Notes: a model not told the origin generated them from the letters alone. A stretch of 64,000 nucleotides of DNA from Alphaproteobacteria bacterium (GCA_965227515.1 CBDDFZ010000001.1:3584001-3648000), one strand, 5' to 3'; counted from the first letter of the stretch, positions 5,859 to 44,641 are shown. A program made the numbers and translations.

Positions 5859-5893
5859 GCTTTCCCTTGCCGACGGAGCGGACCTAGTTGGCC

Positions 5894-7978: not shown

Positions 7979-7985
7979 CCTAGCC

Positions 7986-15453: not shown

Positions 15454-15477
15454 CGATGCGCGATTTGGACACCTGCC

Positions 15478-16203: not shown

Positions 16204-16211
16204 GCACCCAA

Positions 16212-24967: not shown

Positions 24968-25057
24968 ACAACTTACCGCCCGCAACAGAGGAATGCTTTC
25001 CTTTGCGCCCGGCGCGATGCGATGTTACGCGCAGCGGACTCAGAGTCGGAGGATACC

Positions 25058-25942: not shown

Positions 25943-25999
25943 GCACCTCGACCTGTCGATGCCGGTGCGCCCGCCGCGACGCGCCGGACGGGGCACCGC

Positions 26000-29789: not shown

Positions 29790-31232
29790 ATGGCCGATTC
29801 CAAGCCCGCCGCCCAATCGCCCGATTACGTCGAGCGCTTCGAGGATGCCATCGAGCGCAACCGGCCGCGCATCGCCGACGCCAAGGCGGCGCTGGAGAAG
29901 GCGGGCGTGAAGTACGTGATGGCGTGCTGGATCGACCTGCACGGCCTGCCCAAGACCAAGCCGGTGCCGATGGCGGAGTTCGAGACGGTCTGCCTGGGCA
30001 AGGGGCCGCAGTTCGCCGTTCATTCGGTCTCGTTCGTGCCGGAGCTGTCGCCCGCGGATTCCGACCAGATCGTCGTGCCGGACCTGGACGCGGTCTATGT
30101 CTGCCCGTGGGACACCAGCATGGCGATGGTGTTCTCCGACCTCTACTGGGAGGGCGCGCCCTACAATGTGTGCCCGCGCCAGGCCTTGCGCCGCGCCATG
30201 CGCGATGCCCGTCAGGCCGGGTATGTCGGCTATGCCGGGGTCGAGCCCGAGTTCATCGTGATGCGCCACGACGAGGCCGGCCAGCCGGTGAAGGCGTTCG
30301 ACGACGATCCGCCGGAGGGCGTGCGCCCGCGCCGCCAGGCCTTTGGCTACGACGTGGAATACTCCATCGATTCCATGCCGTTCCTGAAGGACATGATCGA
30401 CATCCTGGGCGGGCTGGGCTGGGACCTGCGCGACGTGGTTGCCGAGGGCGCCTATTCCCAGTTCGAGCTCGATTTCGGTTACACGAACTTGTTGCAGATG
30501 GCCGACCGGCTGGCTTTCCTGCGCATCGTGCTGAAGGAGGTGGCCAAGAAGCACGGCATGTTCGTCACCTTCATGCCGAAGCCGACTACCGGCGACTGGC
30601 GCTCCGGCGCGCACATCAATTTCTCGCTGCGCAGCACCGCCACCCCCGAGGACAATCTGTTCCAGCAGGGCGACGGCTGGTCGCCGCAGGCCGGCCACGC
30701 GGTCGGCGGGTTGATGGCCCATGCCGAGGCGCTGACCGCCATCACCTGCCCGACGGTCAACTCCTATAACGGGCTGGTGCCGCGCGTCGGCGGGTTCGAG
30801 GGCGGCACCGTCACCTGGGCGCCGACCAACATCACCTACGGTCACAATAACCGCTCCGCGCAGTTCCGCCTGCCGCAGAACCGGTTCTGCATCGAGAACC
30901 GGGCGGCGGACATGACCATGAACCCCTACCTGGCCTTCGCCATGACCCTGACATCGGCGATCGAGGGCATCGAGAAGGGCATCGATCCCGGTCCGCCGAC
31001 CGACCGCGACCTCTACGCGATGACACGGGAGGAGTTCGACGAACTCGGTATTCGGCGGCTGCCGCGCAACCTGTTGCAGGCGACGGAGGCACTGGCCACC
31101 GACCCTCTGGCCACGCGGGTGCTGGGGCCGACGATGCTGAAGTCCTACCTCGCCTACAAGAACGACGAGTGGGAGCGTTACCACCAGGCGGTGACCGACT
31201 GGGAGGTGCAGGAGTATCTGAGGCTCTACTGA
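29790..31232 (+). CDS. Glutamine synthetase family protein (gamma-glutamyl-amine ligase; GmaS/GlnT-like)
   Basis: IDLHGLPKTKPVP, GVEPEF, QFELDF, TFMPKP, SGAHINFS, NNRS, IENR, NPYL. Confidence 0.87.
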   Translation: MADSKPAAQSPDYVERFEDAIERNRPRIADAKAALEKAGVKYVMACWIDLHGLPKTKPVPMAEFETVCLGKGPQFAVHSVSFVPELSPADSDQIVVPDLDAVYVCPWDTSMAMVFSDLYWEGAPYNVCPRQALRRAMRDARQAGYVGYAGVEPEFIVMRHDEAGQPVKAFDDDPPEGVRPRRQAFGYDVEYSIDSMPFLKDMIDILGGLGWDLRDVVAEGAYSQFELDFGYTNLLQMADRLAFLRIVLKEVAKKHGMFVTFMPKPTTGDWRSGAHINFSLRSTATPEDNLFQQGDGWSPQAGHAVGGLMAHAEALTAITCPTVNSYNGLVPRVGGFEGGTVTWAPTNITYGHNNRSAQFRLPQNRFCIENRAADMTMNPYLAFAMTLTSAIEGIEKGIDPGPPTDRDLYAMTREEFDELGIRRLPRNLLQATEALATDPLATRVLGPTMLKSYLAYKNDEWERYHQAVTDWEVQEYLRLY

Positions 31233-32251
31233 TGGCCACCGCACCGGACTGCGAGGTCTTCGACCTCGGCGACGTGACGCTGCTGTCGGGCGAGGTGCTG
31301 CGCGGCGCGCGGCTGGCCTACAAGACCTATGGCGCGCTGGCGCCGGACGGCGGCAATGTGGTGGTGCTGCCGACCTTCTACACCGGCAGCCACATGCGCA
31401 ACGAAGGCTTCTTCGGCACCGGGCGCGCCATCGATCCGGCCCGCCACTTCATCGTCTCGATCAATATGTTCGGCAACGGCATCTCGTCGTCGCCGAGCAA
31501 CACGCCGGCCCCGCAGGACAGTCCGCGCTTCCCGCTGGTGACGTTGTGGGACAACATCGCCTGCCAGCACCGGCTGCTGACCGAGCGCCTGGGTGTGGAA
31601 CGCATCGCGCTCGTCGCCGGCTGGTCGATGGCCGGCTGCCAGGCCTATCAGTGGGGCGCGCAATACCCGGATATGGTCGACGCCATCCTGCCGTTCTGCG
31701 CTTCGGCCCGCACCTCGCCGCACAATTGGGTGTTCCTGGAGGGCGTGAAGGCGGCACTGTGCGCGGACCAGGGCTGGAAGGGCGGCGACTACGCTTCGCC
31801 ACCGGTCGCCGGGCTGAAGGCATTCGCGCGCGTCTATGCCGGCTGGGCCTATTCGCAGACCTTCTATCGCGAGGGGCTCTTCCGCCAGCTCGGCTTCGCG
31901 ACGCCGGAAGACCTGCTGGTCGACTGGGAGGACGACCACGCCACGAACTGGGATGCCAACGACCTGCTGGCCAAGCTCGCGACCTGGCAGGCCGGCGATA
32001 TCAGTGCCAATCCGCTTTATGGCGGCGATTTCGAAAAGGCCCTGGGGGCGATCACCGCGCGTGCGATCCTGATGCCGTCGACCACCGACCTCTACTTCCC
32101 GCCTGATGACAATGCCATCGAGGCGCGGCACATGCCCAACGCCGAGTTCCGTCCGTACGCGTCCGACTGGGGCCATTGCGCCGCCAGCCCGGGCAACGAC
32201 CCCGGCTTCACCGCCGCCCTTGAGGCCAATTTGCGCGAGTTGTTGGGATAG
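31232..32251 (+). CDS. MetX-like alpha/beta hydrolase (homoserine O-acetyltransferase family)
   Basis: LAYKTYG, FGNGISSSPSN, GWSMAG nucleophile, DLYFPP, WGH; TGATG coupling to the GS gene. Confidence 0.85.
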   Translation: MATAPDCEVFDLGDVTLLSGEVLRGARLAYKTYGALAPDGGNVVVLPTFYTGSHMRNEGFFGTGRAIDPARHFIVSINMFGNGISSSPSNTPAPQDSPRFPLVTLWDNIACQHRLLTERLGVERIALVAGWSMAGCQAYQWGAQYPDMVDAILPFCASARTSPHNWVFLEGVKAALCADQGWKGGDYASPPVAGLKAFARVYAGWAYSQTFYREGLFRQLGFATPEDLLVDWEDDHATNWDANDLLAKLATWQAGDISANPLYGGDFEKALGAITARAILMPSTTDLYFPPDDNAIEARHMPNAEFRPYASDWGHCAASPGNDPGFTAALEANLRELLG

Positions 32252-32287
32252 GTCCCAAAATCGTCGCCCTCGTCGCCCCACCCCACT

Positions 32288-32443
32288 CGTCGTCCTCGCC
32301 CTTGTGGCGAGGACCCATGGCGGTGCCGGTCCCGATGCGCGAGTTGAAGGTCTCTACCGGCGTTGCCGGACGCGTGCAGCCCTCTGGAACCGATCCCGCA
32401 TGTCGCCCAGGAATGGGTCCTCGCCACAAGGGCGAGGACGACG
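32288..32443. repeat. REP/MITE-like element, copy 2 (perfect 31-bp inverted arms)
   Basis: cgtcgtcctcgcccttgtggcgaggacccat (32288-318) and atgggtcctcgccacaagggcgaggacgacg (32413-43), between convergent genes. Confidence 0.85.
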
Positions 32444-32449
32444 AAGGAG

Positions 32450-32489
32450 TGGATTGCCGCGTCGCGCTAACGCGCTCCTCGCAATGACG
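32450..32489. repeat. Second REP-type half element
   Basis: tggattgccgcgtcgcgctaacgcgctcctcgcaatgacg resembles common alphaproteobacterial intergenic repeats (from recall). Confidence 0.55.
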
Positions 32490-32504
32490 GCGGGAGAGGC
32501 CGCC

Positions 32505-33539
32505 CTACCCCGCGGGGCGCTTGATCGACTGGTCCACCAAGTCGCCGCGATGCTGCGCGATGGCCGCCATCAGCCGCAGCACCACGCACACCGCCAGCCG
32601 GCTGGTAACACCGCTGACATCGAATATCGGCGCCAGTTCCGACACCTCGATCACGCTCGGCCGGCCCCGCTTTCCGAGTGCTGAGGCGATGCGCATCATC
32701 TCGCGCGATTCCAGCCCGCCCGGCTCGGCCGACGTCACCCCCGGCGCCATTGACGCGTCCATGACGTTGAAGTTGAAACTGAGGTACTGCGCGTCCGTGC
32801 CATTCCAGGCCCGGTCCGCCGCCTCCGCCGCGCCGGCGTCGATGCCGTTGTCGATCAGCTCGAACATCGGATGGAAGCGGATGCCGCGCGCCTTGGCCAG
32901 GTCGACCCAGTCCTTCGGGTTCATCGAGTTGCGCGCGCCGATATGGCCGATATTCGCCGCCGCCAGGTTCGGCAGCTCGGAGATGCGGGCGAGCGCGCAT
33001 GTGCTGACGTCGGCCTGACCGGCCCAGTTGTCGGCCAGGTCCAGATTGGCGCCGAAATGGAGGTAGCCCATTTTCTTGTCGGCACCCAGATGATCCGACA
33101 GCGCCTTGGTCGCCGGGATCGAGATCGAGCGGTCGCCGCCGCAAACGATGGGCGTGATGCCGGCTTCCAGCACCTTCCGGACCGCGTCGTAAATGCGCTG
33201 CCGCGACAGGGTCGGGTTCACCTTCGGCATCGACACGTCGCCGCAGTCGACCGCCGCACCCTGCAGGTCGACCTGATATTCGAACCAGTAGGGGAAGTAT
33301 TCCTGGGAGGCGATGCGGAACTCTCGCGGCCCCTCCTCCGAGCCCGGCTTGCCGACATTGCCCTCGTCGAACGGCACGCCGACGAACGCGTACTCGACGC
33401 CGGCCTCCTTCAGCTTCTCGGTGTCCAGCGGCACGTGGTCGGCGCGCAGGAAGGTGAGTTGCGTCGGCGAGCGGTAGTTTTCGGCATCGTCGCCACCCAG
33501 CGGCGAGAAGATGTGGGCATAGGCCTTGGCGGGGTTCAT
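32505..33539 (-). CDS. Ureohydrolase-family non-catalytic subunit (MfmB/DmgB-like)
   Basis: Arginase fold (GVPFD, VDCGD, PGG..SRE) with degenerate metal ligands GGDRS, HFGANLD, SFNFNVMD; N-terminus MNPAKAYAHIFSPLGGD recalls MfmB. Confidence 0.85.
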   Translation of the reverse strand: MNPAKAYAHIFSPLGGDDAENYRSPTQLTFLRADHVPLDTEKLKEAGVEYAFVGVPFDEGNVGKPGSEEGPREFRIASQEYFPYWFEYQVDLQGAAVDCGDVSMPKVNPTLSRQRIYDAVRKVLEAGITPIVCGGDRSISIPATKALSDHLGADKKMGYLHFGANLDLADNWAGQADVSTCALARISELPNLAAANIGHIGARNSMNPKDWVDLAKARGIRFHPMFELIDNGIDAGAAEAADRAWNGTDAQYLSFNFNVMDASMAPGVTSAEPGGLESREMMRIASALGKRGRPSVIEVSELAPIFDVSGVTSRLAVCVVLRLMAAIAQHRGDLVDQSIKRPAG

Positions 33540-33556
33540 GACGTTTCCTTAGATAT

Positions 33557-34615
33557 TCAGGCCGTCTGGCCGGCGGCGCGCAGGGTGGCGGCCCGGCTGC
33601 CGAGATAGTGGTAGACCATGCAGGCGACGAGCTTGATGCTCATCTGGCTGACGTCGAACATCGGGCACAGCTCGGAGATTTCGAGCACATCGGCGCCATA
33701 GGTGCCGGCGATGCGGGCAAGCTGGATCGCCTCGCGCGGCTTGATGCCGAAGCACTCCGGCGCCGTCGTGCCGGGCATGCAGCTCGCGTCCAGAGAATCC
33801 GTGTCCCACGAGCAATAGACCGCGTCGGTACCGTTCCAGGCGATGTCGAAGATCTCGCGGGTGCAGACGTCGACCCCGCGCTCCGCCGCCTCCATCATCG
33901 GGATGATGCGGACCTGATTGTCGACGAAGAAGTCGTGCCAGTCCTTCGGGTTCAGCCCGTTGCGCGAGCCCATGTGGGCCATGTTGGCGCCGTCGCAGTT
34001 CGGCAGGTCGAACGCGCGCGCCGGGCCGGAGCAGTTGGTGTTGCGGATGCCGCCCCAGTCGGGCGCGGAGTCCAGGTGGCAGTCGATGTGCAGGTAGCCG
34101 ATCTTGCCGTCGCGGTGGAAATCGGACAGCGCGTGGGCGGCTGGGATCGGCGCCGAGTGGTCGCCACCGCAGAATATCACCTTGGCACCGCCCTCCAGGC
34201 ACTCGGTGATGTACTGGTGAATGTACTCGTGGCTGCGGTCGTTGTTGCCGGGCACGATCGGCACGTCGCCGCAGTCGACCGGCCGGAAGAACGAGACCAG
34301 GTCGACATCGTACTCGAACATATAGGGGAAGTACTGGGTGGTCGCCTCACGCAGGCCGGCCGGCCCCTGCGAGGTGCCTGCGCGCACCATCTGGCCCTGA
34401 TCCCACGGCACGCCCAGGAAGCAGATCTTCGCCCCCATCTCGCGGATCGCATGGCGGTCGGGCGGGCAATAGGGCGCGTTCATGAAGGTGGCGATGCCGG
34501 CCGACTTGAAGGTGCCGTTGTGCAGCTTGGGCGAGTTGATGTGATCGTCGGCGCCGCGCTGCTGCTGCGGCCCCTGGTGCTGGTGCGGCACGAACTCCCA
34601 GGTGCCAGTGCTCAT
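33557..34615 (-). CDS. Ni-dependent ureohydrolase catalytic subunit (metformin/dimethylguanidine hydrolase MfmA/DmgA-like)
   Basis: Intact ligands GGDHS, DCHLD, WDTDSLD; SPKLHNG..K..GIATFM.APYCPPDRH recalls MfmA; adjacent hypAB. Confidence 0.88.
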   Translation of the reverse strand: MSTGTWEFVPHQHQGPQQQRGADDHINSPKLHNGTFKSAGIATFMNAPYCPPDRHAIREMGAKICFLGVPWDQGQMVRAGTSQGPAGLREATTQYFPYMFEYDVDLVSFFRPVDCGDVPIVPGNNDRSHEYIHQYITECLEGGAKVIFCGGDHSAPIPAAHALSDFHRDGKIGYLHIDCHLDSAPDWGGIRNTNCSGPARAFDLPNCDGANMAHMGSRNGLNPKDWHDFFVDNQVRIIPMMEAAERGVDVCTREIFDIAWNGTDAVYCSWDTDSLDASCMPGTTAPECFGIKPREAIQLARIAGTYGADVLEISELCPMFDVSQMSIKLVACMVYHYLGSRAATLRAAGQTA

Positions 34616-34622
34616 GACGTGC

Positions 34623-35018
34623 TCATGGGCGGTGTTCCTCGAACGCGGGTTGGATGGGTCGGGCCGGCGATGCCGGCGCGCCGAACTCGATGCCGGTGAC
34701 CTGCATCTCGCGGCCGGTCACCACCTCGTTCGCCGGCATGCCGCAGGTGCCGCAGCGGAAGGTGTAGCGCGCGGTCGGCCGGCGGGCGGCGTTGCATGTG
34801 CGGCACTGCACGGTCAGTGGCACTTCCTCGATCTCCAGGGCGGCGCCGTCGCACACCGTGCCGCGTGCCGCACGATCGAAGCAGAACAGGAGCGCGCGCC
34901 GGAAGCCCGACAGCTCGCCGAGCCGGATACGGATGGCGGCGACGTGCGTCTCGCCCTGGCTGGCGGCGTGTGCGGCCACCATCTCGATCAAATTGCGGGC
35001 AATGGTCAGCTCATGCAT
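34623..35018 (-). CDS. hypA: Nickel metallochaperone HypA
   Basis: N-terminal MHE, GELSG, CRTC and CGTC, GREM. Confidence 0.93.
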
Positions 35019-35826
35019 GGGCGTGATGCGGTGTTGGCGACGCTTGGACCGCATCGCGGGTGCGGGCGAGCCAGTCGACCCAGCCCGCCATGCCCTCGCC
35101 GGTCCGCGCCGAGAGCTCAAGCACCTCGATGTCGGGGTTCAATGCGCGGGCATGCGCGATGCAGCGCGCCACATCGAAATCGACATGGGGCAGCAGGTCG
35201 ATCTTGTTCAGCACCATCAGGTCGGCGGCCATGAACATATCGGGGTACTTGGCCGGCTTGTCGTCGCCCTCGGTCACCGACAGCACGGCGACCTTGGCGT
35301 GCTCGCCGAGGTCGAAGGTGGCGGGGCAGACCAGGTTGCCGACATTCTCGATGAACAGCACGTCGCCGGCGCCCAAGGTCAGCCCGTCCATGGCATGGCC
35401 GATCATGTGCGCGTCCAGATGGCAGACCCGGCCAGTGTTGATCTGCACCGCCGGCACGCCGGCCGCCCGGATGCGTGCGGCGTCGTTCTCGGTCGCCTGG
35501 TCGCCCTCGATGACGGCCATCGACATGCGCCCGTCAAGCGCCGCGGCCGTGGCGGTGAGCAGGCTGGTCTTGCCGGCGCCGGGCGACGACACGAGGTTGA
35601 GGGCGAGCACGCCCAACCCGGCAAACCGTACGCGGTTGGCTTCGGCGTAACCGTCGTTCTTGGCCAGGATGTCGAGCTCGACCGCATGCCAGTCGCGCTG
35701 GCCGTGATTGTGCTGGTGGCCGTGCGCGTGGTCGTGGTCTTGCGCGTGGCTGTGATGATGGTGGCGATGGCCATCCTTGCCACCGATGGTGACCTCGCCC
35801 TCGCCGCAACCGCATACGCCACACAT
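35011..35826 (-). CDS. hypB: Nickel-incorporation GTPase HypB
   Basis: MCGVCGC, His-rich stretch, [25 protein letters not shown]. Confidence 0.95.
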
Positions 35827-35837
35827 GATCGGGAATC

Positions 35838-36752
35838 CTATTCGGCCGCCTTCGCCTGCCACGACGACAGTTCCGGGATCGTGCCCTCGTAGTATGGCAG
35901 TTCGTCCACCCGCGGCGTCCACGATCCGTCGTCGATGCAGGCCTGCACGTGGGTCGCGATCTCTTCCATGGTCGCGAACCACACGCCGCCCTTGTTCTGC
36001 ATCTCCTCGATCATCTTGGCGACCCGCTCGCAGCGCGCCAGCCGGCCGGAGACGAACGGATGCCACACCGTGACCCACAGGCCGTTGTGGCGGTACATCG
36101 CGTCGAACTCGGACATGAAGACGTTCATCGCCTCGTCGGGCGACTTGATCGGCATCATGTAGTGCATGTCGGGCGCGTGGGTGTAGTGCGGCCAGTCGTC
36201 CATCGCCCACTGGCTGGGCAGCTCGATCACCTGGCCCTTCTTGGTCTTCAGGATGTAAGGCACGTCGTCGCCCATCAGGCTGGCGTCATAGATCATGCCC
36301 TGGTCGATCATGTAGTCGAGCGAGTATTTGGAGAAGTTGTAGAGCGGCGCGCGCCAGCCGCGCGGCTTCTTGCCGGTCATCTTGCGGATCGTTTCGATCT
36401 GGCGCTCGAACCAGTAGAGCTCCTCCTCGGCGCTGAGCTGGTTCGGGTTCTCGTGCAGATAGCCGTGGGCGGCGATCTCGTGCCCGCCCTCCAGGATGAT
36501 GTCGACCAGGTGCGGATAGCGCTCCATGCACCACGCCGGATAGAAGAACGTCTGCTTGATGTCGTAGCGCTTGTACATCTCCACGATGCGCGGGATCGCG
36601 ACCTCGTCGTACTTCAGCCACGACATGGTCGACAGCATGGTCGGCGCGCGGTCGCCGTGCTCCAGGTGCAGGATGCTGTCGGTGTCGATGTCGAAGGTGA
36701 TGGCGCAGGCCACGCGGGCGCCGTTCGGCCAGGGCACGGGATTGCTGATCAT
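35838..36752 (-). CDS. Polysaccharide deacetylase (CE4; PuuE/HpPgdA-like) hydrolase
   Basis: [54 protein letters not shown]. Confidence 0.88.
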
Positions 36753-36785
36753 GGTCGTGGTCCCCTCATCCGCTATGAGAACGGT

Positions 36786-38060
36786 TCACTTTATGGCAAT
36801 GCCGTCGGCCTGCACCAGCAGGCCTTCGCGCGGCAGGCCGTAGACACGCACCGGCGTCATCGCCGGCCGGGCATTCGGCGCCACCTGGCGCCACACATCG
36901 CACACGGCGTAGAAGGCGTCGGCCACGTCGGGCGCGCCCTCCTCACCGACCAGGAACAGGTTGAGCTTGACCAGGTCGTCCAGCGACGCGCCGCCCTCGG
37001 CCAGCACCCGCGCCACCCGGTCGAACACGATGCGCGCCTGTCCGGCAACGTCGCCCGGCGCCAGCACATCGCCGCCGCCGCTGAGCGCAACCTGCCCGCC
37101 GACATAGATCTCCTCGCCCGCCGCAAGCCCGTCCGACGCGAAGGCCGGCTGGTAGCGCCCGCCCAGGTCCGCGGCGGACAGCACGTGGCGCGCCGGGTCG
37201 ATCACCGCCATGGCGTCGATCTCCAGCACCAGGCCGGGATAGAGCAGGTCGACCCCGAAGGCGGAGAACACCGGCCCCGGTGCTTTGAAAACCTCGCCCG
37301 ACACGTCCAGGATCGATGGCAGATAGCCGGTCGCCGGATCGCCGCCCTGCGATTGCTTGAAGCAGATCTTCACCCGCACGACGTCGTCCAGCGTGCCGCC
37401 GGCATCGACGACCACCTGCTCGATGAAGCGATAGATATTGCGGGTCTGGGTCACCACGTCGTCGACCGCCACCGACCGGCCCTTCTCGTCGGCCGAGATC
37501 TGGCCGCCGACGAAGATCTGGTTGCCGGTGCGCCACCCCTGGGAAAGCGGCACCGCGATGCTCCAGTCCCAGCTTCCGTCGGGCATGATGCGCTGGCGGG
37601 TGCGCCGTGCCCCGCCGCGCAGCGCTACCCCTTCGATCTGGATCAACTGGCCGGCATAGGGCATGCCCTTGATCCGCACCGCGGTCGCCGCCGGGCCGGG
37701 ATCGGGGAAGTACTCCAGACGGACGGCGGTCATGTCCTCCCAGTACTTGGTGGCGTCGGCATCGTCGCCCTCGAAGACGTAGTAGGTGTTCAGGCGCGCC
37801 AGATCGGCCATCTCCAGGCCCGACTGCGCCAGGGTCGCCTTCATGTTCTCGAACACATTGCGGGTCTGGGCGGCGATGTCGCCGGCATCTTTCACCGAAC
37901 CGTCGGCATTCAGGGTCTGCTGCCCGCTGACGAAGACCTGGTCGCCGATCTCCACCGACTGCGCGAACGGCACGGGCCGCGCCCAAGCCCAAACGCCGCC
38001 ATTGTCGGCGTTGGCGGTTCGCGGCGTCGCATCGCCGGGGTGCGGGACAGGCTGGCTCAT
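36786..38060 (-). CDS. Triple-domain Rid (YjgF/YER057c/UK114) family protein
   Basis: Three repeats: VFVSGQ/IFVGGQ/IYVGGQ ... IQIEGVA/LEIDAMA/VQADGIA. Confidence 0.85.
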   Translation of the reverse strand: MSQPVPHPGDATPRTANADNGGVWAWARPVPFAQSVEIGDQVFVSGQQTLNADGSVKDAGDIAAQTRNVFENMKATLAQSGLEMADLARLNTYYVFEGDDADATKYWEDMTAVRLEYFPDPGPAATAVRIKGMPYAGQLIQIEGVALRGGARRTRQRIMPDGSWDWSIAVPLSQGWRTGNQIFVGGQISADEKGRSVAVDDVVTQTRNIYRFIEQVVVDAGGTLDDVVRVKICFKQSQGGDPATGYLPSILDVSGEVFKAPGPVFSAFGVDLLYPGLVLEIDAMAVIDPARHVLSAADLGGRYQPAFASDGLAAGEEIYVGGQVALSGGGDVLAPGDVAGQARIVFDRVARVLAEGGASLDDLVKLNLFLVGEEGAPDVADAFYAVCDVWRQVAPNARPAMTPVRVYGLPREGLLVQADGIAIK

Positions 38061-38109
38061 TGTGTCGGGTCCGATTCAGGCACGTCAGATCAAGCGGATA
38101 TGGGCAGGG

Positions 38110-39096
38110 TCAGCCGGCAACGGCCAGGCCGCGGTGATACTGCTCCAGGGCAGCGATCGCCTCCTCGGCCGCGCCGTCGCTTTCCGGCAGAGCACCGCAG
38201 TAGGTCTGGATGGCCTTCGCGGCCAGCGGCTTCCATTTCTCGATCCAGTCGCGCATCGCGGCACGGCTCGCCTCGTTGCCGGCGGCGAACTCCACCAGTG
38301 CCGCGCTCCACCGGCGCGACCGCTCGGCATCGCGCAACTGGTTGTCGGCCAGCATCGCCAGCAGCGGGTCGCGGAAGCGCCGCGCCGTCTTGCCGAGCTG
38401 GCGCAGGCATTCGTCGGCGGCCGGCTTGGCGACCACGTTCAGCGCAATGAAGTTTTCGCCCCAGTCGTAGGTGGCCAGCGTGCGCTCGATCAGTTCGCGC
38501 AGGCCCTGCCACGCCGGGTGCTCTTCCCAGTGCCGGCGCTCGTCCTTGCCGAAGCCGCGGTCGGGATGCGCGATCCGAAGCTCGCGGGTGCGATAGGCCA
38601 TGCGCGACAGCCAGCGGAACTCGTCGCCCTCCTGGAACCCGGCGGCCGCCGTGATGGTGCTGGCGGGCGCAATCTGCAGGATGTAGGCGGCGCCCATCTG
38701 CAACGCCATCTGCAGGTAGCGGCGCGGCGTGTAGAGGGATTCCAGCACGCCCAGCCAGTCGTCGGCCAACTCGCTGTCGTAGCCCTGCTCGTTGTGCTCG
38801 TCGAGCAGGCCGTCGATGTATTCCTCCTGGCCGTCCTGGGTGCGGGTATAGACACGGTAGACTAGCTCGTCCGGGTCGCGGAACCCCTCCCAGTCGTCAT
38901 GCTGCAGCGGGCTCTCGGCGACGTTCTTCTGGTACCAGGTATTCATATCCAGCAACGGCGCCGGCGACAGCTCATAGGCCTGGTCGGGGTAGCGGTTGCG
39001 GGTCTGCAGGTTGGTGGTGACGATCTCGTACTCGCTGGGACGGCGGCGGTTCTTCGCCAGCCCGCTCCAGGTCTTCATGCCGGTCAGTTCAACCAT
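38110..39096 (-). CDS. Soluble di-iron monooxygenase hydroxylase beta subunit (TmoE/IsoE-like)
   Basis: KTWS.LA..RRRPSEYEIVT, WEGFRDPDELVYR.Y...QDGQE, YDWGE.F..LN. Confidence 0.92.
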   Translation of the reverse strand: MVELTGMKTWSGLAKNRRRPSEYEIVTTNLQTRNRYPDQAYELSPAPLLDMNTWYQKNVAESPLQHDDWEGFRDPDELVYRVYTRTQDGQEEYIDGLLDEHNEQGYDSELADDWLGVLESLYTPRRYLQMALQMGAAYILQIAPASTITAAAGFQEGDEFRWLSRMAYRTRELRIAHPDRGFGKDERRHWEEHPAWQGLRELIERTLATYDWGENFIALNVVAKPAADECLRQLGKTARRFRDPLLAMLADNQLRDAERSRRWSAALVEFAAGNEASRAAMRDWIEKWKPLAAKAIQTYCGALPESDGAAEEAIAALEQYHRGLAVAG

Positions 39097-39126
39097 TTCC
39101 CCACCCTTCCCGCTTGCGTCCGAAAC

Positions 39127-39426
39127 CTACTTCGCCAAGAAGCGCATCGCTTCGTTGTCGACGCGGATGAACCCCTCGAACGAGGGCATGAACACTTCGA
39201 TGTCGCCACGCGTCACCGCACGGCCCAGCATGTCGCCGACCGTGTCGAAGCGCACCACGCACTCGCCGCGCACCTTGATACGCAGGTAGGAGGCGTGCTC
39301 CTCCACCTGGATCTCGCGGCCCTGGTTGTCTTCCTCGATCGCCTCGACCACGGCGTCGGCCATGTCGCCGGTGCGCATCACCGGGCCGACGAAGCGGTCC
39401 TCCTCAGCTCCAGTTCCGTCTGGCAT
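39127..39426 (-). CDS. Monooxygenase effector/coupling protein (MmoB/DmpM/TmoD family)
   Basis: VGPVMR.GD.ADAVVEAIEEDN, YLRI, MPSFEGFI. Confidence 0.9.
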   Translation of the reverse strand: MPDGTGAEEDRFVGPVMRTGDMADAVVEAIEEDNQGREIQVEEHASYLRIKVRGECVVRFDTVGDMLGRAVTRGDIEVFMPSFEGFIRVDNEAMRFLAK

Positions 39427-39465
39427 CGCCCCCTCCTCTCGCGGCCCGGCCGCCAACCGCCGCGT

Positions 39466-39804
39466 TCAGCCCACGCCGGCCGGTGTCAGCACCACCTTGA
39501 CCTCGCCGTCCTCGACCTTGACCGGATAGCTGGTCAGCGCCACGCCGGTCGGGTTCACGCCCTTGCCGGTCAGCACGTCGAACTCCCACATATGCGCCAG
39601 GCACGTCAGCACGCAGCCGTCCAAATCGCCCTCGGCCAGCGACTGGTCCTGGTGCGGGCAGCGCGGATGGAACGCGCGCACCTCACCGCCCGGCGCGTGC
39701 ACGATCAGCACGTCGGTGCCGGCGACCGTGAACAGCTCCATCTCGCCTTCCCAGATATCGTCCAGGCTGCAAACGGTCTGGTATTCCATGCCGGTCCCGC
39801 TCAA
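39466..39804 (-). CDS. Rieske [2Fe-2S] ferredoxin (TmoC-like)
   Basis: VCSLDDIWEGEM, CPHQ...CLAHMWEFD, GVNP. Confidence 0.92.
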   Translation of the reverse strand: MSGTGMEYQTVCSLDDIWEGEMELFTVAGTDVLIVHAPGGEVRAFHPRCPHQDQSLAEGDLDGCVLTCLAHMWEFDVLTGKGVNPTGVALTSYPVKVEDGEVKVVLTPAGVG

Positions 39805-40061
39805 GCTTCCGGATAGATTTCGATGGCTTCCATCTCGGCCAGCCCGGCGCCGGACACGGTAGCATCGTCGGCCAGCGGCGCGTCGGCGCCCTGCACCTTC
39901 ACTTTCAGCCTGGTGCCATCCGGGAACGGCGCCACCAGCACGCTGGCCACCTGATCCAGCGCCTTCTCAACCACGGTCGTCATGGGGTCGCCATCGTCGA
40001 CCACCAGCACCTTGTAGCCGTAGTCGCCGTGCAGGTAGCAGGCGAGCGGGAAGTCTGCCAT
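39801..40061 (-). CDS. Monooxygenase gamma subunit (TmoB-like)
   Basis: MADFPL...GDY..KVLVVD..D.M; 86 aa; position between alpha and Rieske genes. Confidence 0.8.
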   Translation of the reverse strand: MADFPLACYLHGDYGYKVLVVDDGDPMTTVVEKALDQVASVLVAPFPDGTRLKVKVQGADAPLADDATVSGAGLAEMEAIEIYPEA

Positions 40062-40072
40062 GACGCCGTCCG

Positions 40073-41572
40073 TCACTCTGCGGCCTGGGCCGGCGGCTGG
40101 TGATAGCCGTCGATCCAGGCATAGTCGTAGCCGTCGACACCGCGCTCGGCCGGGCTCTGGCCCATGTATTCGTAGAAGGCGTCCTCGCCGGGCGGGATGG
40201 TGCCGTCGAACGCCCGGTCGATGATGCTGCGGTGGCCCTTGTAGCGGTTGGGCTCGACCTCGAAGATCCACTTGCAGACCGGCGAGCAGAAGTGATAGCG
40301 GCGCCCGTCCAGGTGAATGTGGTGGTCGGTCGCGTGCGCACCGGTCCCCGCGACGCCCGAGACCTCCAGCCCGCACATGTTGCAGATCAGCGGCGGCGCC
40401 ACCGGCACCGTCTTCTCATAGGCACCCTGGCGGATGTTCTCGATGATGACGTCCCAGCACTTGCCGTAGGTGTCGTTCCAGCCGGGATACTTCTCCTCCA
40501 GCCAGTCGCGCTCCTCCGGCGACACGCCGGCGATCGGCCGCCACCATTCGGTCGCGCGGTAGATGTAGACGCCGATCTGCTGGGCGTGGTGGAAGGTCTC
40601 GATATCCCACTGGAAGTAGTCCCAGTACCACGGCATATCGAGGCCCAGCGCATCCAGGCTGCGGCCGAACTGGCCGATGACCCACTCGTGCATGAACTCC
40701 TTCAGCGAGTTCTCCCGGTGCTCCAGCGGGGTGTAGTAGTCCATGCCGATGCCGCTCAGCGCGGAGAACTGCTTCCACATCCGCCAGAAGGCGATGTCGA
40801 CCAGTTGCTGCGCCTCTTTCTTGCGGCCGTTCTCCAGCATGATGCGCACCATCGGCTCGCCGATCTGGGCGTGGCGCGCCTCGTCGGACTGGATCGACTG
40901 CAGCATGGTCGCGAATGTGTGGTCGCCGAACTTGGCCGCGTCCGCCGACAGGGCGACGAACTGCAGGTTCGTGAACGCCTGCTCCAGGCCCATGTTCAAC
41001 ATGATGCCGGCACTCACCGCGTCGCGGGTGTGGGCGATGTCGTCCAGCGCGTGGCGCAGGCTGATGATGATCCAGTTCTCGGTCTTCGACGACTTGTGGC
41101 ACCAGTCGAACACGCGGTCGTGGCGCAGGAACTCATAGGCGAAGTAGATCTGGATCTGACCGTGGCGGATTTCGTCCAGCGTGCCGAAGGTCGCCATGTT
41201 GCGCAGGCCGGGCGCGCGGCCGAAGCGGGTCATCCGCCCGAACGCGGATGCGGAGTGGAACTCCGCCCAGCACACCGCGCTGAAGTGCAGCGCCAGCAAC
41301 GCCTTCCAGTGCGGAGACGCATTCTTGAAGAAGTTGGAGCGTGACAGCGCCGCCTTCACCGAATAGGCGCCGACGTCCTTCTCGCGCTGGGTCTTCACAT
41401 AGTCGCGGTACGAGACCTTGTAGGGCTCGTCGAACTTCTCCCACTCCTCGACCGGGATGCCGAAAGAGTTCGCCATCGGCGCCGGATACAGCTCGTCCTC
41501 GGTGACGTATTTCGGTGTCCAGTTGGTCTCGCGCGCCAGATCGTACCATTCGCTCATCGGCAGCATGGCCAT
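40073..41572 (-). CDS. Soluble di-iron monooxygenase hydroxylase alpha subunit (TmoA/IsoA-like)
   Basis: WYDLARETNWTPKYV, RNMATFG..DEIRH, EQAFTN, QSDEARH, WLEEKYPGW, C-terminal FCS..C.WIF; GGAGG RBS. Confidence 0.95.
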   Translation of the reverse strand: MAMLPMSEWYDLARETNWTPKYVTEDELYPAPMANSFGIPVEEWEKFDEPYKVSYRDYVKTQREKDVGAYSVKAALSRSNFFKNASPHWKALLALHFSAVCWAEFHSASAFGRMTRFGRAPGLRNMATFGTLDEIRHGQIQIYFAYEFLRHDRVFDWCHKSSKTENWIIISLRHALDDIAHTRDAVSAGIMLNMGLEQAFTNLQFVALSADAAKFGDHTFATMLQSIQSDEARHAQIGEPMVRIMLENGRKKEAQQLVDIAFWRMWKQFSALSGIGMDYYTPLEHRENSLKEFMHEWVIGQFGRSLDALGLDMPWYWDYFQWDIETFHHAQQIGVYIYRATEWWRPIAGVSPEERDWLEEKYPGWNDTYGKCWDVIIENIRQGAYEKTVPVAPPLICNMCGLEVSGVAGTGAHATDHHIHLDGRRYHFCSPVCKWIFEVEPNRYKGHRSIIDRAFDGTIPPGEDAFYEYMGQSPAERGVDGYDYAWIDGYHQPPAQAAE

Positions 41573-41601
41573 GGCCCCATCTCCTCCACTGGCAGTGCGG
41601 T

Positions 41602-41868
41602 CCACGAATTTCGTGGCGAACCTGGCCAGTGAAGCACGAATTCCTCCGCACTGCCAAGCGCGCTTGTGAGAAATTCGCGATATTGCCCAAAAATGCCGCA
41701 CAATTCGTGGCTGGCGTGCAGGCCATGCCGCATTCGCAGGCAGTCAGGCGATCCGGCTTGTGCCAGTTCGAGGGTTGACAAGGACTTCATTGACGAAATT
41801 CGTGCGGATGAATACCGTGGGTACCGCAAACGCTCAGCAGTTCAGCTAGTTTGCATCGAAATTCGTGA
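41602..41868. promoter_or_regulatory. Phased array of putative Lrp/AsnC operator sites (CACGAA-W-TTCGTG) in the divergent promoter region
   Basis: Sites centred at 41609 (perfect palindrome), 41641, 41673, 41703, 41798, 41861; half-site at 41766; spacing ~31-32 bp or multiples. Confidence 0.72.
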
Positions 41869-41923
41869 CCGCGCCGGCCTTCGCGCTGGACATGGTCCGC
41901 GGCCGCGGACGTTGGGGAACGCG

Positions 41924-42685
41924 ATGGCAGCCACAAACGGCAGGTCGGGGGGCACGAAGGCGAACGGCGCCAAGGCCGGGGGTGCGAAGACGGGCGGCGC
42001 GAAAACGCGCGGCCGCTCCAAGCCTTCCGGAAAGTCGGCCGGAAAATCCGCTGCCAAGTCTTCCGCGAAATCCAGGCGAGCCGAGAGCGGCGCCGTCGAT
42101 GCCCGCCTCGTCATGGGCGCGCGCAGCCTGCTCTCCAGCAACGGTGACGAAAACGTCGAAGATGCGTTCGGCCACCGCCCGCCGCCCATCGAGGGCCTGA
42201 ACCGCAGCATCGTCGAAATCCTGCAGGAGGACGGCCGCGCCTCGCTGTCGTCGATCGCGGAAGTGCTGGGCGTTTCCGAGGCCACCGTGCGTAGCCGCGT
42301 GTCGCGCATGCGCAAGGCCAACCTGATCAACTTCATCGCCGTCATCAACCCGCTGGCCCTGGGCTTCACCGCATGGGCGATGCTGGGCATCCGGGTCGCC
42401 CAAGGGGCCAGCGCCGACGATGTGGCGCGCTACTTCAGCGACTGCCCGGAGGTGGTCTACGTCATGCGGGTTGCCGCCCGCTTCGACCTGTTGGCCGAGA
42501 TCGTCTGCGAGACGCCCGACGACCTGCGCGACTTCCTGGATCGCCATTGTTATGGCGCACCCGACGTGGCGTCGGTCGAGCCGATGATCGGGCTCGGTCT
42601 CTACAAGAGCCTGTTCAAGTGGGACCGGCCGATCGTTGCCGGCAATGGTTCCAATCACGGCGGCAACAGCAACGGCAGCAAATAG
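41924..42685 (+). CDS. Lrp/AsnC family transcriptional regulator with basic low-complexity N-terminal extension
   Basis: IVEILQEDGRASLSSIAEVLGVSEATVRSRV HTH; NPLALG, PEV, FDLLAEI. Confidence 0.88.
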   Translation: MAATNGRSGGTKANGAKAGGAKTGGAKTRGRSKPSGKSAGKSAAKSSAKSRRAESGAVDARLVMGARSLLSSNGDENVEDAFGHRPPPIEGLNRSIVEILQEDGRASLSSIAEVLGVSEATVRSRVSRMRKANLINFIAVINPLALGFTAWAMLGIRVAQGASADDVARYFSDCPEVVYVMRVAARFDLLAEIVCETPDDLRDFLDRHCYGAPDVASVEPMIGLGLYKSLFKWDRPIVAGNGSNHGGNSNGSK

Positions 42686-42756
42686 GGAGCCGGCCGATGG
42701 GGGGCGGGACATCGAAGCATGCAGGAACAGCGGCGCCGGCGGTCGCCGCACCACAT

Positions 42757-42773
42757 GCGGCAAAGCTCTTGCA
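42757..42773 (+). promoter_or_regulatory. Possible sigma54 (-24/-12) promoter for the ABC transporter
   Basis: GCGGCAAAGCTCTTGCA: GG-N10-GC with TTGC, about 43 bp upstream of ATG 42816. Confidence 0.4.
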
Positions 42774-42815
42774 TGGGACCGCCCCATGGCTGGGCCGCGA
42801 GACGAGTGGTGACCG

Positions 42816-43715
42816 ATGAGCGTGCGCGACGACATCAGCGACACCGATACGCGCGACGTGGAAACGATGCACGAGCACGACGGCGGTGCAGCGTCCCCGG
42901 CGCCGGTGTTCAAGCCGCCGCGCGAGCGCTTCCTGGAGGTGCGCGGCACCGTCAGCCAGCACCAGACGTTGTGGCTCGGCCTGATCGGTGTTGTCGTGTT
43001 CTTCGCGATCTGGGAAATCGCGCACCAGTTGACGCCGGAGGGTGAGCAGAAGTTCCTGCCCGGCGCGATCCAGGTGGTGTCCAAGATCGGCGAGCTGATC
43101 GATGAGGAGGGCTTCCTCTACGACATCGCCAAGTCGGTCTACCGCATCTATGTCAGCTTCCTGGCCGCCTGCCTGCTGGCGGTGCCGCTGGGCCTGCTGA
43201 TGGGCAGCTTCGTGAAGATGCGGGCACTGATCAACCCGACCGTGGGCGGCCTGCGCTACCTGCCGGCCGCCTCGTTCGTGCCGCTGCTGCTGGTCTACCT
43301 CGGCCCCACCGACCTCTCCAAGATGGCACTGCTGTTCCTGGGCTGCGTGTTCTTCCTGATCGCGCTGATCCTGGACAACGTGCTGGCGGTGCCGAAGGAG
43401 TTTGCGGAATCCGCGCAGACCATGGGCGCCAGCCGCAGCCATATCGTCTGGCACGTCATCTTCAAGGCGTCGGCACCGCAGATCCTGGACTCCATGCGCA
43501 ACATGATCGCGGTGTCGTGGACCTATCTGGTCATCGCGGAGATCGTGGCGGCGACCGACGGGATTGGCGCGGTGATGATGCGCGCGTCACGCTTCCTGCA
43601 TGTCGACATCATCATGGCGGGGATTCTGACCATCGGCGTGCTCGGGGTGCTGACCGACATCTCGTTCCGGCTGATCAGCCGCGCCCTGTTCCCCTATGTC
43701 TACGCACGGCGCTGA
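42816..43715 (+). CDS. ABC transporter permease (NitT/TauT type)
   Basis: RYLPAASFVP, ESAQTMGAS, WTYLVIAE. Confidence 0.9.
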   Translation: MSVRDDISDTDTRDVETMHEHDGGAASPAPVFKPPRERFLEVRGTVSQHQTLWLGLIGVVVFFAIWEIAHQLTPEGEQKFLPGAIQVVSKIGELIDEEGFLYDIAKSVYRIYVSFLAACLLAVPLGLLMGSFVKMRALINPTVGGLRYLPAASFVPLLLVYLGPTDLSKMALLFLGCVFFLIALILDNVLAVPKEFAESAQTMGASRSHIVWHVIFKASAPQILDSMRNMIAVSWTYLVIAEIVAATDGIGAVMMRASRFLHVDIIMAGILTIGVLGVLTDISFRLISRALFPYVYARR

Positions 43716-43730
43716 GGCTGGAGGCGGGGG

Positions 43731-44564
43731 ATGAACATGCCAGTCGATCCAGCCAGCCGCGAGGCGGCGACCCAGACCGCGGCATCGCCGCCCATCCGTT
43801 GCCGCCGCGTCACCAAGGAGTACCTGGGCGGCAGCCGCGTCGCGCTGAACGACATCACCCTCGACATCCATGAGAACCAGGTGACCGCCCTGATCGGCCC
43901 GTCCGGCTGCGGCAAGACCACCCTGCTCCGCCTGATCGCCGGCCTGGAATTCCCGACCCGCGGCGAGGTCCTGATGCACGACAAGCCGGTGCTGGGCCCC
44001 GGCCCGGAACGCGGCATGGTGTTCCAGGCCTACACCTCGTTCCCGTGGCTGACCGCGCGCAAGAACGTCGAGCACGGCATGAAGATCCAGAACCTGCCGC
44101 GGCCCGAGCGGATGAGCCGGGCGCAGCATTTCCTGGAGCTGGTTCACCTGGACGAGTTCGCCGAGGCCTATCCGGTGGAGATGTCGGGCGGCATGAAGCA
44201 GCGCGTCGCCATCGCGCGCACACTGGCGCAGAACCCGGACCTGCTGCTGCTGGACGAGCCGTTCGGCGCGCTGGACGCCCAGGTGACCTGGGAAATGGAA
44301 GAGATGGTCATCGAGATCATCGAGAACGAGAGCAAGACCGTCATCCTGGTCACCCACGACATCCAGGAAGCGATCTACCTGGCCGACCGCATCATCTTCT
44401 TCACGCGGCAGCCGGGCCGGATCAAGGCCGACCTGTCGATGGAGTTCAAGGAGGGACGGCGTTTCGCCAAGAAGGAGGAGCTGCTGGTCCATCCCGGATA
44501 CCCGGAGATGGAGAAGCTGCTCTACACGATGATGCGCGAAGAGATTCAGGGGCGCATCTCGTGA
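43731..44564 (+). CDS. ABC transporter ATP-binding protein
   Basis: GPSGCGKTT, MSGGMKQR, LLLDEPF. Confidence 0.95.
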   Translation: MNMPVDPASREAATQTAASPPIRCRRVTKEYLGGSRVALNDITLDIHENQVTALIGPSGCGKTTLLRLIAGLEFPTRGEVLMHDKPVLGPGPERGMVFQAYTSFPWLTARKNVEHGMKIQNLPRPERMSRAQHFLELVHLDEFAEAYPVEMSGGMKQRVAIARTLAQNPDLLLLDEPFGALDAQVTWEMEEMVIEIIENESKTVILVTHDIQEAIYLADRIIFFTRQPGRIKADLSMEFKEGRRFAKKEELLVHPGYPEMEKLLYTMMREEIQGRIS

Positions 44565-44641
44565 GCCGGCGGCCAGGCAGGCGGCCGGGCCGGACAACCA
44601 GTGGGCCGATGGGGGTCCACGCAACCTCGGGGAGATCGGGT

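Follow-up and report, generated by a model that had tools for sequence, protein, structure and literature searches.

An alphaproteobacterial operon joining a toluene-monooxygenase-type diiron oxygenase to a dimethylguanidine-hydrolase-type nickel enzyme: a candidate route of nitrogen salvage

Layout of the operon

The window analysed here is a stretch of 64,000 nucleotides from an Alphaproteobacteria bacterium (GCA_965227515.1, CBDDFZ010000001.1:3584001-3648000). Eleven minus-strand genes at 32505-41572 form an operon that is a fusion of two modules, each of which is conserved separately in other genomes. Module 1 contains a soluble diiron monooxygenase (SDIMO) of the toluene monooxygenase (TMO) type, a single-chain protein with three YjgF/Rid domains (triple-Rid) and an amidohydrolase of carbohydrate esterase family 4 (CE4), and it usually includes an AsnC regulator and an importer; it is a coherent unit, conserved on its own. 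Module 2 contains HypB, HypA and a ureohydrolase's alpha and beta subunits, and judged by its sequence matches, motifs and gene order it is an ortholog of the nickel enzymes N,N-dimethylguanidine hydrolase (DmgH) and metformin hydrolase (MefH). The link between the SDIMO and the hydrolase is recurrent but optional. What the operon encodes, together with what lies around it, suggests that nitrogen is salvaged from a compound bearing a guanidine group rather than that a hydrocarbon is oxidised.

A sequence-only reading of this DNA had described eleven co-directional genes that overlap or are separated by no more than ~50 bp, and had placed the monooxygenase genes in TmoABCDE order. Both statements are correct: Pfam and NCBIfam identify all eleven genes and confirm the order alpha, gamma, Rieske, effector, beta, and the gaps are 7-49 bp with one 8-bp overlap. 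In the list below the starts of gamma, Rieske and effector were read from the sequence and the remaining starts are open reading frame (ORF) coordinates.

40073-41572, minus strand: SDIMO alpha subunit, TmoA/TouA-like, with a C-terminal YHS domain (Pfam Phenol_Hydrox, 1.9e-70)
39801-40061, minus strand: SDIMO gamma subunit, TmoB-like (Pfam TmoB, 5.3e-14)
39466-39789, minus strand: Rieske [2Fe-2S] ferredoxin, TmoC-like (Pfam Rieske, 3.8e-17)
39127-39426, minus strand: effector/coupling protein, TmoD/MmoB-like (Pfam MmoB_DmpM, 3.6e-23)
38110-39096, minus strand: SDIMO beta subunit, TmoE-like (Pfam Phenol_Hydrox, 1.1e-60)
36786-38060, minus strand: triple-Rid, one chain with three YjgF/Rid domains (three Pfam Ribonuc_L-PSP stretches)
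35838-36752, minus strand: CE4-family amidohydrolase with the metal-dependent motif pattern (Pfam Polysacc_deac_1, 1.2e-17)
35011-35826, minus strand: HypB nickel GTPase (NCBIfam TIGR00073, 289 bits, cut-off 121)
34623-35018, minus strand: HypA nickel metallochaperone (Pfam HypA, 2.6e-27)
33557-34615, minus strand: arginase-family protein A, predicted catalytic ureohydrolase alpha subunit (Pfam Arginase, 5e-49)
32505-33539, minus strand: arginase-family protein B, predicted metal-free ureohydrolase beta subunit (Pfam Arginase, 1.5e-53)

Along the operon the gaps are 11 bp (alpha-gamma), 11 bp (gamma-Rieske), 39 bp (Rieske-effector), 30 bp (effector-beta), 49 bp (beta-Rid) and 33 bp (Rid-CE4). 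They are followed by 11 bp between CE4 and hypB, an 8-bp overlap of hypB and hypA, 7 bp between hypA and the ureohydrolase alpha gene and 17 bp between the alpha and beta genes. The ATG of the effector gene is preceded by a GAGGAGG stretch. A consensus scan of 31000-43000 gave no sigma-70-like promoter and two terminator-like sites, neither of which is on the minus strand within the operon. No promoter or terminator found by the scan splits the SDIMO genes from the hyp and ureohydrolase genes, and the eleven genes may be co-transcribed. Metagenome contigs of run X2, ~96% identical, span the hypB-CE4 and triple-Rid-beta junctions; they come from a near relative and are therefore not counted as independent support. 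An Rfam search over 26000-50000 at E up to 0.1 returned nothing, guanidine riboswitches included.

The monooxygenase module and its partners

The alpha subunit matches TouA of toluene/o-xylene monooxygenase (ToMO; 1t0q) over its full length (residues 1-492, E 3.3e-186), which identifies the enzyme as a TMO-type four-component SDIMO. Such enzymes form group 2 in the older classification. A 2025 review lists them as 'group 1' (PMC11825192). The window alpha subunit and all 85 aligned alpha sequences share the diiron ligands E104, E134, H137, E197, E231 and H234 (ToMO numbering) without exception, and T201 and N202 are invariant as well.

Scanning for the alpha subunit with one genome per species gave 80 loci, 34 at 75-85% identity, one at 62% and 45 at 53-56%. 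We refer to the 34 loci with an alpha subunit at least 75% identical as the SDIMO clade and to the 45 loci at 53-56% as canonical TMOs. The clade loci lie mostly in marine or sponge-associated metagenome-assembled genomes (MAGs) from Arenicellales, Ca. Poriferihabitaceae, Ca. Spongiihabitans, Rhodospirillales and unclassified Alphaproteobacteria; the canonical loci belong to genera such as Zoogloea, Thauera and Burkholderia. In the alpha tree the high-identity group and the 62% locus form one clade (SH-aLRT 99-100). About 15 pocket and channel positions are fixed within the SDIMO clade and different from canonical TMOs. Specifically, the clade has V, C, W, A at positions 100-103 (canonical majority I, A, R, G), H, S at 106 and 107 (A, A), F at 111 (E), A, L at 175 and 176 (F, F), A, H at 180 and 181 (M, M), N, M, G, L at 193-196 (T, F, S, F) and K at 214 (E). 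Among these changes are newly gained His, Ser and Asn residues as well as E214K. The hydroxylase looks active but, by its sequence, differently tuned as compared to canonical TMOs.

Compared with ToMO (TouA-F) and toluene 4-monooxygenase (T4MO; TmoA-F), the window system has the same gene order, the full-length TouA match, the diiron ligands, T201, N202, the Rieske ferredoxin and the effector. It differs in belonging to a separate clade with 53-56% identity, in at least 15 clade-fixed pocket or channel positions, in lacking a reductase gene and an aromatic lower pathway, and in having triple-Rid, CE4, AsnC and a NitT/TauT-type importer as neighbours. The earlier suggestion that the SDIMO is not a canonical toluene enzyme is borne out by its place in the alpha phylogeny, its own pocket residues and its own neighbours. 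Catechol, epoxide or other aromatic lower-pathway genes were found neither in the window nor in the nine annotated clade loci nor in the intermediate locus L034.

Conservation of the partners was counted over the 34 clade loci and over the 23 of them with full flanks, i.e. at least 8 kb on both sides. Triple-Rid lies beside the SDIMO in 29 of the 34 loci (23/23 with full flanks), CE4 in 27 (22/23), the AsnC regulator in 25 (21/23) and the NitT/TauT-type binding protein in 24 (18/23). None of these four neighbours was found at any of the 45 canonical TMO loci. Distant HyuA homologues (at least 30% identity) occur near nine of the 34 clade loci. Blind clustering of the ORFs around clade loci gave no further recurrent family, and conserved antisense ORFs dominated its output. 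One SDIMO sub-clade (L017-L031 and L035, alpha 75-77%) has no Rieske gene between gamma and effector, and no DmgH-type pair was found near any of its members. The neighbours at L017 are hydantoinase A/B, a formamidase-like gene, the large subunit of a molybdenum hydroxylase and an acyl-CoA ligase. In a sponge-symbiont MAG a protein-arginine-methyltransferase-like gene (PRMT_C, L009:4286-5257) lies ~5 kb upstream of the SDIMO, which may be a coincidence; methylated arginines carry dimethylguanidino groups.

The AlphaFold model of triple-Rid (pLDDT 80.5, pTM 0.85) is a single-chain pseudo-trimer. Its best full-length fold matches are the chorismatases FkbO/Hyg5 (4bps, 5a3k, 5ag3; E 3e-14, TM 0.66 by target), with identity of just 13-15%. 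Its single domains match RidA structures with TM 0.8-0.9 by target, so that the predicted protein resembles the RidA imine deaminases both in the domain fold and in the trimer-like assembly. The carboxylate-binding arginine of RidA is, we assume, R105 of E. coli RidA within a 'PAR' motif. Where this motif is expected, the three domains, read without alignment to a reference, have PAA, PVF and PAM. Lacking the PAR motif and being so distant from chorismatases, triple-Rid appears to be neither a typical RidA nor a demonstrable chorismatase. RutC is its second-best NCBIfam match, at 98.8 bits and under the cut-off of 169. The Rut pyrimidine pathway consists of the oxygenase RutA, the amidohydrolase RutB, the Rid protein RutC and the alpha/beta hydrolase RutD. 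It has in common with module 1 an oxygenase, an amidohydrolase and a Rid protein, i.e. parts for oxidative opening of an N-heterocycle. However, the Rut oxygenase is a flavin enzyme and not a diiron enzyme, and the Rut amidohydrolase is of the isochorismatase and not of the CE4 type.

CE4 is the most conserved partner of the SDIMO (82-87% identity across the clade). It had been described as PuuE-like, and this does not hold: against the PuuE model TIGR03212 it scores 77.7 bits with an equivalog cut-off of 424.6, and its His-His motif marks the metal-dependent type. Among solved structures it is closest to 3rxz (E 7e-53), a protein whose function is unknown, whereas PuuE (3cl6) is matched with only E 1e-16. 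The motifs TFDID, HGYLH, RAPLY and VWH correspond to what we take to be the metal-dependent CE4 set (TFDD-like, HxxxH, RxPY-like, LxH-like). The ESM Atlas gave only generic 'polysaccharide deacetylase' clusters for CE4. An allantoin-like route, with CE4 as allantoinase followed by an M20 allantoate amidohydrolase, was considered and rejected: the M20 genes of clade loci are of the ArgE/DapE deacylase type, they lie near only four of the 34 loci, and the host has none.

The binding protein of the importer in the window is 63-76% identical to those beside other clade SDIMOs, and it has no other match in the host genome. Its sequence matches in the Protein Data Bank are too weak to name a ligand (best SsuA, E 6e-5). 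A transporter of the NitT/TauT family is reported to import guanidine in Synechocystis with a KD of 97 nM (PMC12704784).

A reductase gene of the TmoF/TouF type (Fer2, FAD_binding_6, NAD_binding_1) is absent from the operon. In the whole host genome (5.5 Mb, 99.67% complete) no reductase of the ferredoxin-NADP reductase (FNR) type was found with the clade reductases of L001 and L015 and with Pfam PF00175 as queries; the PF00175 control gave matches in 11 of 14 control genomes. A reductase adjoins the SDIMO in only seven of the 34 clade loci and in none of the other 27. The electron donor that would serve the Rieske ferredoxin is a presumed part of the scheme.

The nickel hydrolase, its linkage to the SDIMO and the surroundings

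The ureohydrolase pair is very close to metformin hydrolase, as the reference to an MfmAB-type heteromer with HypAB had implied. The alpha subunit matches subunit A (8x3g, 8snf) with E 5.5e-178 and 595 bits over 348 residues, and the beta subunit matches subunit B (8ryi_C) with E 1.5e-158 and 530 bits. Ligand motifs are intact in alpha (GGDHS, DCHLD, DTDSLD) and degenerate in beta (GGDRS, GANLD, NFNVMD). HypB has a CxxCGC motif and a His-rich N-terminus, HypA has an MHE N-terminus and two CxxC pairs, and the hypB-hypA genes are directly upstream of the pair. The same layout, with hypA/hypB upstream, an active alpha and a metal-free beta subunit in which four of six ligands are lost, is described for MefH and DmgH (PMC11399263). 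Hence the window pair is like the Ni-dependent alpha2beta4 enzymes DmgH and MefH/MfmAB/MetCaCb in gene order, in the kept alpha ligands and in the lost beta ligands. It is unlike them in the specificity positions and in being co-oriented with a monooxygenase module, 11 bp behind it.

Residues 184 and 288-290 have been named as specificity determinants, S/S-T-S in DmgH and C/N-S-A in MefH (PMC11399263). In the window these positions are C/T-T-A, as in 71 of 89 aligned environmental homologues, while S/S-T-S occurs in 5 of the 89; the majority environmental type is thus uncharacterised. A DmgH homologue at ~70% identity is reported still to hydrolyse dimethylguanidine, and the known products of DmgH-type hydrolases are dimethylamine and urea (PMC11399263).

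On its own, the hydrolase module has a recurring layout. A metagenome scan for the ureohydrolase gave 80 loci at 65-89% identity, in which AsnC, a NitT/TauT-type ATP-binding cassette (ABC) importer, a glutamine-synthetase-like (GS-like) gene, sometimes with a MetX-like gene, hypB, hypA, alpha, beta and then urease follow each other. Since many contigs are short, the counts are minimum figures: at least 69 of the 80 loci have hypA, at least 66 the beta subunit, at least 55 hypB, at least 28 AsnC, at least 24 the GS-like gene, at least 20 the binding protein, at least 17 ureC and at least 11 the MetX-like hydrolase. The binding protein of the hydrolase module is 46-59% identical to the one on the SDIMO side of the window, and by this measure the two importers are close paralogs. 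Two stand-alone hydrolase loci have a CE4 together with other oxidoreductases: at L094 the CE4 (32% identity) is accompanied by a GMC oxidoreductase and a luciferase-like monooxygenase, and at L151 the CE4 (51%) is accompanied by a DAO-type oxidase. This fits a logic of oxidation followed by hydrolysis.

In nine of the 34 clade loci (7/23 with full flanks) the SDIMO has the hydrolase pair at a distance of no more than 10 kb. Seen from the other side, genes of the SDIMO module lie beside the hydrolase in nine of the 80 metagenome loci (5/32 with at least 5 kb downstream). The orientation of the modules is mostly convergent; they are co-directional only in the window and a near-identical relative. 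In the hydrolase tree the SDIMO-adjacent sequences fall into three separately supported clades, namely a large marine clade, a clade with L008 and L161 and the clade of the window, in which the other full-flank members (L094, L095, L096) have no SDIMO. A one-clade constraint on 19 SDIMO-adjacent versus 10 full-flank SDIMO-less sequences was rejected by the approximately unbiased (AU) test (delta lnL 166, p-AU 2.9e-9), with groups that were named after the tree had been seen. The linkage thus recurs in other genomes, across three hydrolase lineages, but it is optional.

Two loci show other ways of joining. At L003, in a gammaproteobacterial MAG, module 2 is replaced by an arginase-family protein (15273-16466) 1.7 kb after CE4, adjoined by a LysR regulator and an EamA transporter; it matches 7esr/7oi1 with E 1.6e-133, which we take to be the guanidine hydrolase GdmH of Synechocystis. 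At L008 the region directly upstream of the SDIMO operon contains the hydrolase pair together with a GS-like gene and an entire urease cluster. The ureC on the second contig of the host is 83% identical to the ureC at L008, and the host urease cluster has a creatininase-family gene directly beside it (G000:C2:1375141-1379262). Altogether the host genome has four creatininase-family genes. Three relatives of the host from the same family all lack the SDIMO.

The operon is surrounded in the window by the following features.

42188-42685, plus strand: AsnC/Lrp-family regulator, divergent from the operon, start approximate (Pfam HTH_AsnC-type, AsnC_trans_reg)
42816-45691, plus strand: NitT/TauT-type ABC importer with permease 42816-43715, ATPase 43731-44564 and binding protein ~44690-45691 (Pfam and NCBIfam)
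29790-31232, plus strand: GS-like enzyme, convergent on the operon (NCBIfam type III glutamate-ammonia ligase, 363 bits, under the cut-off)
31169-32251, plus strand: MetX-like alpha/beta hydrolase, convergent on the operon, start uncertain (NCBIfam PRK07581, 446 bits)
45791-49629, minus strand: hydantoinase B/A pair, caprolactamase-like, with uncertain membership of the system (Pfam and NCBIfam, below cut-offs)
32420-32490, minus strand: GC-rich hairpin- or repeat-like element just past the stop codon of ureohydrolase B (9-bp stem in the fold, z only -1.1)

The hydantoinase B/A pair adjoins the ABC importer, and tblastn finds about nine such pairs in the host genome. The element at 32420-32490 is not called a terminator because it has no T-run. 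In four unrelated runs it shows very high metagenome contig depth with many small indels and loose ends, and it looks more like a dispersed repeat of the repetitive extragenic palindromic (REP) kind than a plain terminator. Farther away in the window, 3651-12532 has four alpha-amylase-family genes in a row (one GlgB-like, one isoamylase-like and two others), which are unrelated to the operon and probably form a glycogen or trehalose cluster. At 24080-29625 there are two PCMT-like methyltransferases, the first with a weak, below-threshold TAT-signal match, followed by ORFs of 891 and 317 amino acids without Pfam or NCBIfam matches, of which the 891-residue ORF has a strong coding signal. A 728-residue protein at 54279-56465 has a C-terminal domain like the N,N-dimethylformamidase beta subunit (DMFA2_C, 1.2e-84) and adjoins a sugar-type ABC importer.

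Proposed route and alternative explanations

We propose that the locus would act as a composite nitrogen-scavenging operon from two fused modules. Chances are about even, in our judgement, that a small neutral ring with a guanidine group, e.g. creatinine, is opened by oxidation through module 1, and that module 2 then converts the substituted guanidine set free in this way to urea and an amine. The order of reactions, the substrate and the role of every module 1 protein are what we infer from the gene set. In this scheme a small, polar and probably uncharged guanidine-bearing ring would be taken up by the NitT/TauT-type importer under the regulation of AsnC. The SDIMO would hydroxylate the carbon next to a guanidino nitrogen, triple-Rid may speed the breakdown of the hemiaminal, enamine or imine, and CE4 would hydrolyse an acyl-guanidine or amide bond. 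The alpha/beta enzyme, loaded with nickel by HypAB, would then hydrolyse the released substituted guanidine to urea and an amine, of which urea would go to the urease encoded on the second contig and the amine to the neighbouring GS-like enzyme. Of the candidate substrates, creatinine or a near analogue is the most concrete, and every protein would have a role in its breakdown: hydroxylation at C5 would give creatol, and ring opening to hydroxy-creatine or glyoxylyl-methylguanidine would lead to glyoxylate and a methylated guanidine.

A similar logic is known from MgdH and MgdL. The hemiaminal product of MgdH is reported to be unexpectedly stable, and its breakdown, sped by MgdL, releases guanidine (PMC12508155). 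Thus in both cases an oxygenase would hydroxylate a carbon on a guanidino nitrogen and a second protein would speed the breakdown of the hemiaminal. The proteins are of different kinds: MgdH belongs to the 2-oxoglutarate/Fe(II) dioxygenases and MgdL is a small protein with a beta-barrel (PMC12508155), while in the window the candidates for these roles are a diiron monooxygenase and triple-Rid. MgdH/MgdL and the window proteins are unrelated in sequence, and no guanidine riboswitch was found at 26000-50000.

Several results weigh against the proposed route. Of the 34 clade loci, 25 lack the hydrolase module, and in five of five tested genomes with module 1 but without an adjacent hydrolase no DmgH-type ortholog was found (best match 32% identity), so module 1 does not need it. 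The specificity pattern of the window hydrolase matches neither DmgH nor MefH. Characterised DmgH hydrolyses only N,N-dimethylguanidine and not methylguanidine (PMC11399263). With four creatininase-family genes in the host, a second creatinine route would be less needed. Since no FNR-type reductase was found in the genome, SDIMO activity in this host is putative. Finally, the grouping used for the AU test was made after the fact.

The sequence-only reading had offered a specific version of such a route: the SDIMO makes creatol from creatinine, the ring is then opened by CE4 as a PuuE-like enzyme, and methylguanidine is cut to urea and methylamine by the nickel enzyme. Each part can be assigned to a role, and small, planar creatinine, which is uncharged near neutral pH, would fit an SDIMO pocket with gained polar residues. 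The hydrolase is accompanied by a GS-like enzyme with a type III glutamate-ammonia ligase as the best match, presumably the type used for methylamine capture, and hydantoinase A/B genes recur nearby. However, CE4 is not PuuE-like, the reported substrate range of DmgH leaves out the proposed intermediate, the host already has its creatininase-family genes, and nothing separates creatinine from other cyclic guanidines such as 2-aminoimidazoles or N2-methylated guanines. In this exact form we consider the scheme rather unlikely. A broader statement, that SDIMO, triple-Rid and CE4 are an unrecognised widespread marine pathway that opens creatinine-like cyclic guanidines or N2-methylated guanine derivatives and releases methylated guanidines, is possible, though we put it forward with clear doubt.

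The hydrolase could instead act first or in parallel, cleaving an imported 1,1-disubstituted guanidine, with module 1 degrading the amine product or a related co-imported compound, so that the modules would share transport and regulation without forming a linear pathway. It is in agreement with this that stand-alone hydrolase modules are complete with importer, GS-like gene and urease, that module 1 occurs without the hydrolase in many genomes, and that the AsnC and ABC genes proper to the hydrolase module are missing from the window, where only the paralogous SDIMO-type copy is present. On the other hand, Rid, CE4 and a diiron monooxygenase have no obvious role on dimethylamine and urea, the known products of this hydrolase family (PMC11399263), and the recurrence of CE4 and an oxidant beside the hydrolase at L094 and L151 better fits guanidine release upstream of it. 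We consider this order of events rather unlikely. Improbable, although it deserves mention, is a juxtaposition without metabolic meaning, in which rearrangement or horizontal transfer joined two modules that both serve under nitrogen limitation. Such an origin would agree with the facultative link at 9/34 and 9/80 loci, with orientations that vary between lineages and with the lack of the SDIMO in the three closest relatives of the host, which suggests that the region is mobile. It does not explain why three hydrolase lineages and one guanidine-hydrolase-type enzyme adjoin the same SDIMO clade and 0/45 canonical TMO loci, or why CE4 and hypB in the window are so tightly spaced, the scan having shown no terminator-like site in between.

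An ordinary role in hydrocarbon catabolism, with the SDIMO as a monooxygenase of toluene, benzene or alkenes and its neighbours unrelated, would be suggested by the 53-56% identity to canonical TMOs and the TouA match at E 3e-186, and the 2025 review assumes aromatic hydrocarbons as probable substrates of the uncharacterised TMO subgroups (PMC11825192). The conserved neighbours of the clade are triple-Rid, CE4, AsnC and ABC genes instead of a lower pathway, of which none was seen near annotated clade loci, and the pocket residues are systematically different; we consider this explanation very improbable.

The combination of an SDIMO with a ureohydrolase had been presented as undescribed, and our literature searches agree in finding no report of it, though supplementary gene-context tables may list such neighbours. 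The words 'monooxygenase' and 'marine' are absent from the main text of the metformin-hydrolase papers, and the 2025 SDIMO review makes no mention of sponge, arginase, deacetylase or RidA (PMC11825192). The natural source of N,N-dimethylguanidine is stated to be unknown in two papers, both of the Hartig group (PMC11399263, PMC12508155).

Based on the results obtained we see the following meaning for these enzyme families. The joining of an oxygenase-hydrolase module with DmgH-type enzymes has happened repeatedly, and with a guanidine-hydrolase-type enzyme once. The locus and its relatives are a concrete, testable lead to the natural origin of N,N-dimethylguanidine, and hence to why DmgH exists. 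As most environmental DmgH/MefH homologues carry C/T-T-A, the main natural substrate of the family may not yet be known. If module 1 is the widespread marine pathway considered above, it would supply, as the natural source missing so far, the substrate on which DmgH evolved, the enzyme from which metformin hydrolase directly descends. Its SDIMO would in that case be the first diiron monooxygenase of the TMO type to be dedicated to a substrate that is rich in nitrogen and not a hydrocarbon. For the whole clade of TMO-like enzymes in marine and sponge-associated bacteria a non-hydrocarbon role is probable.

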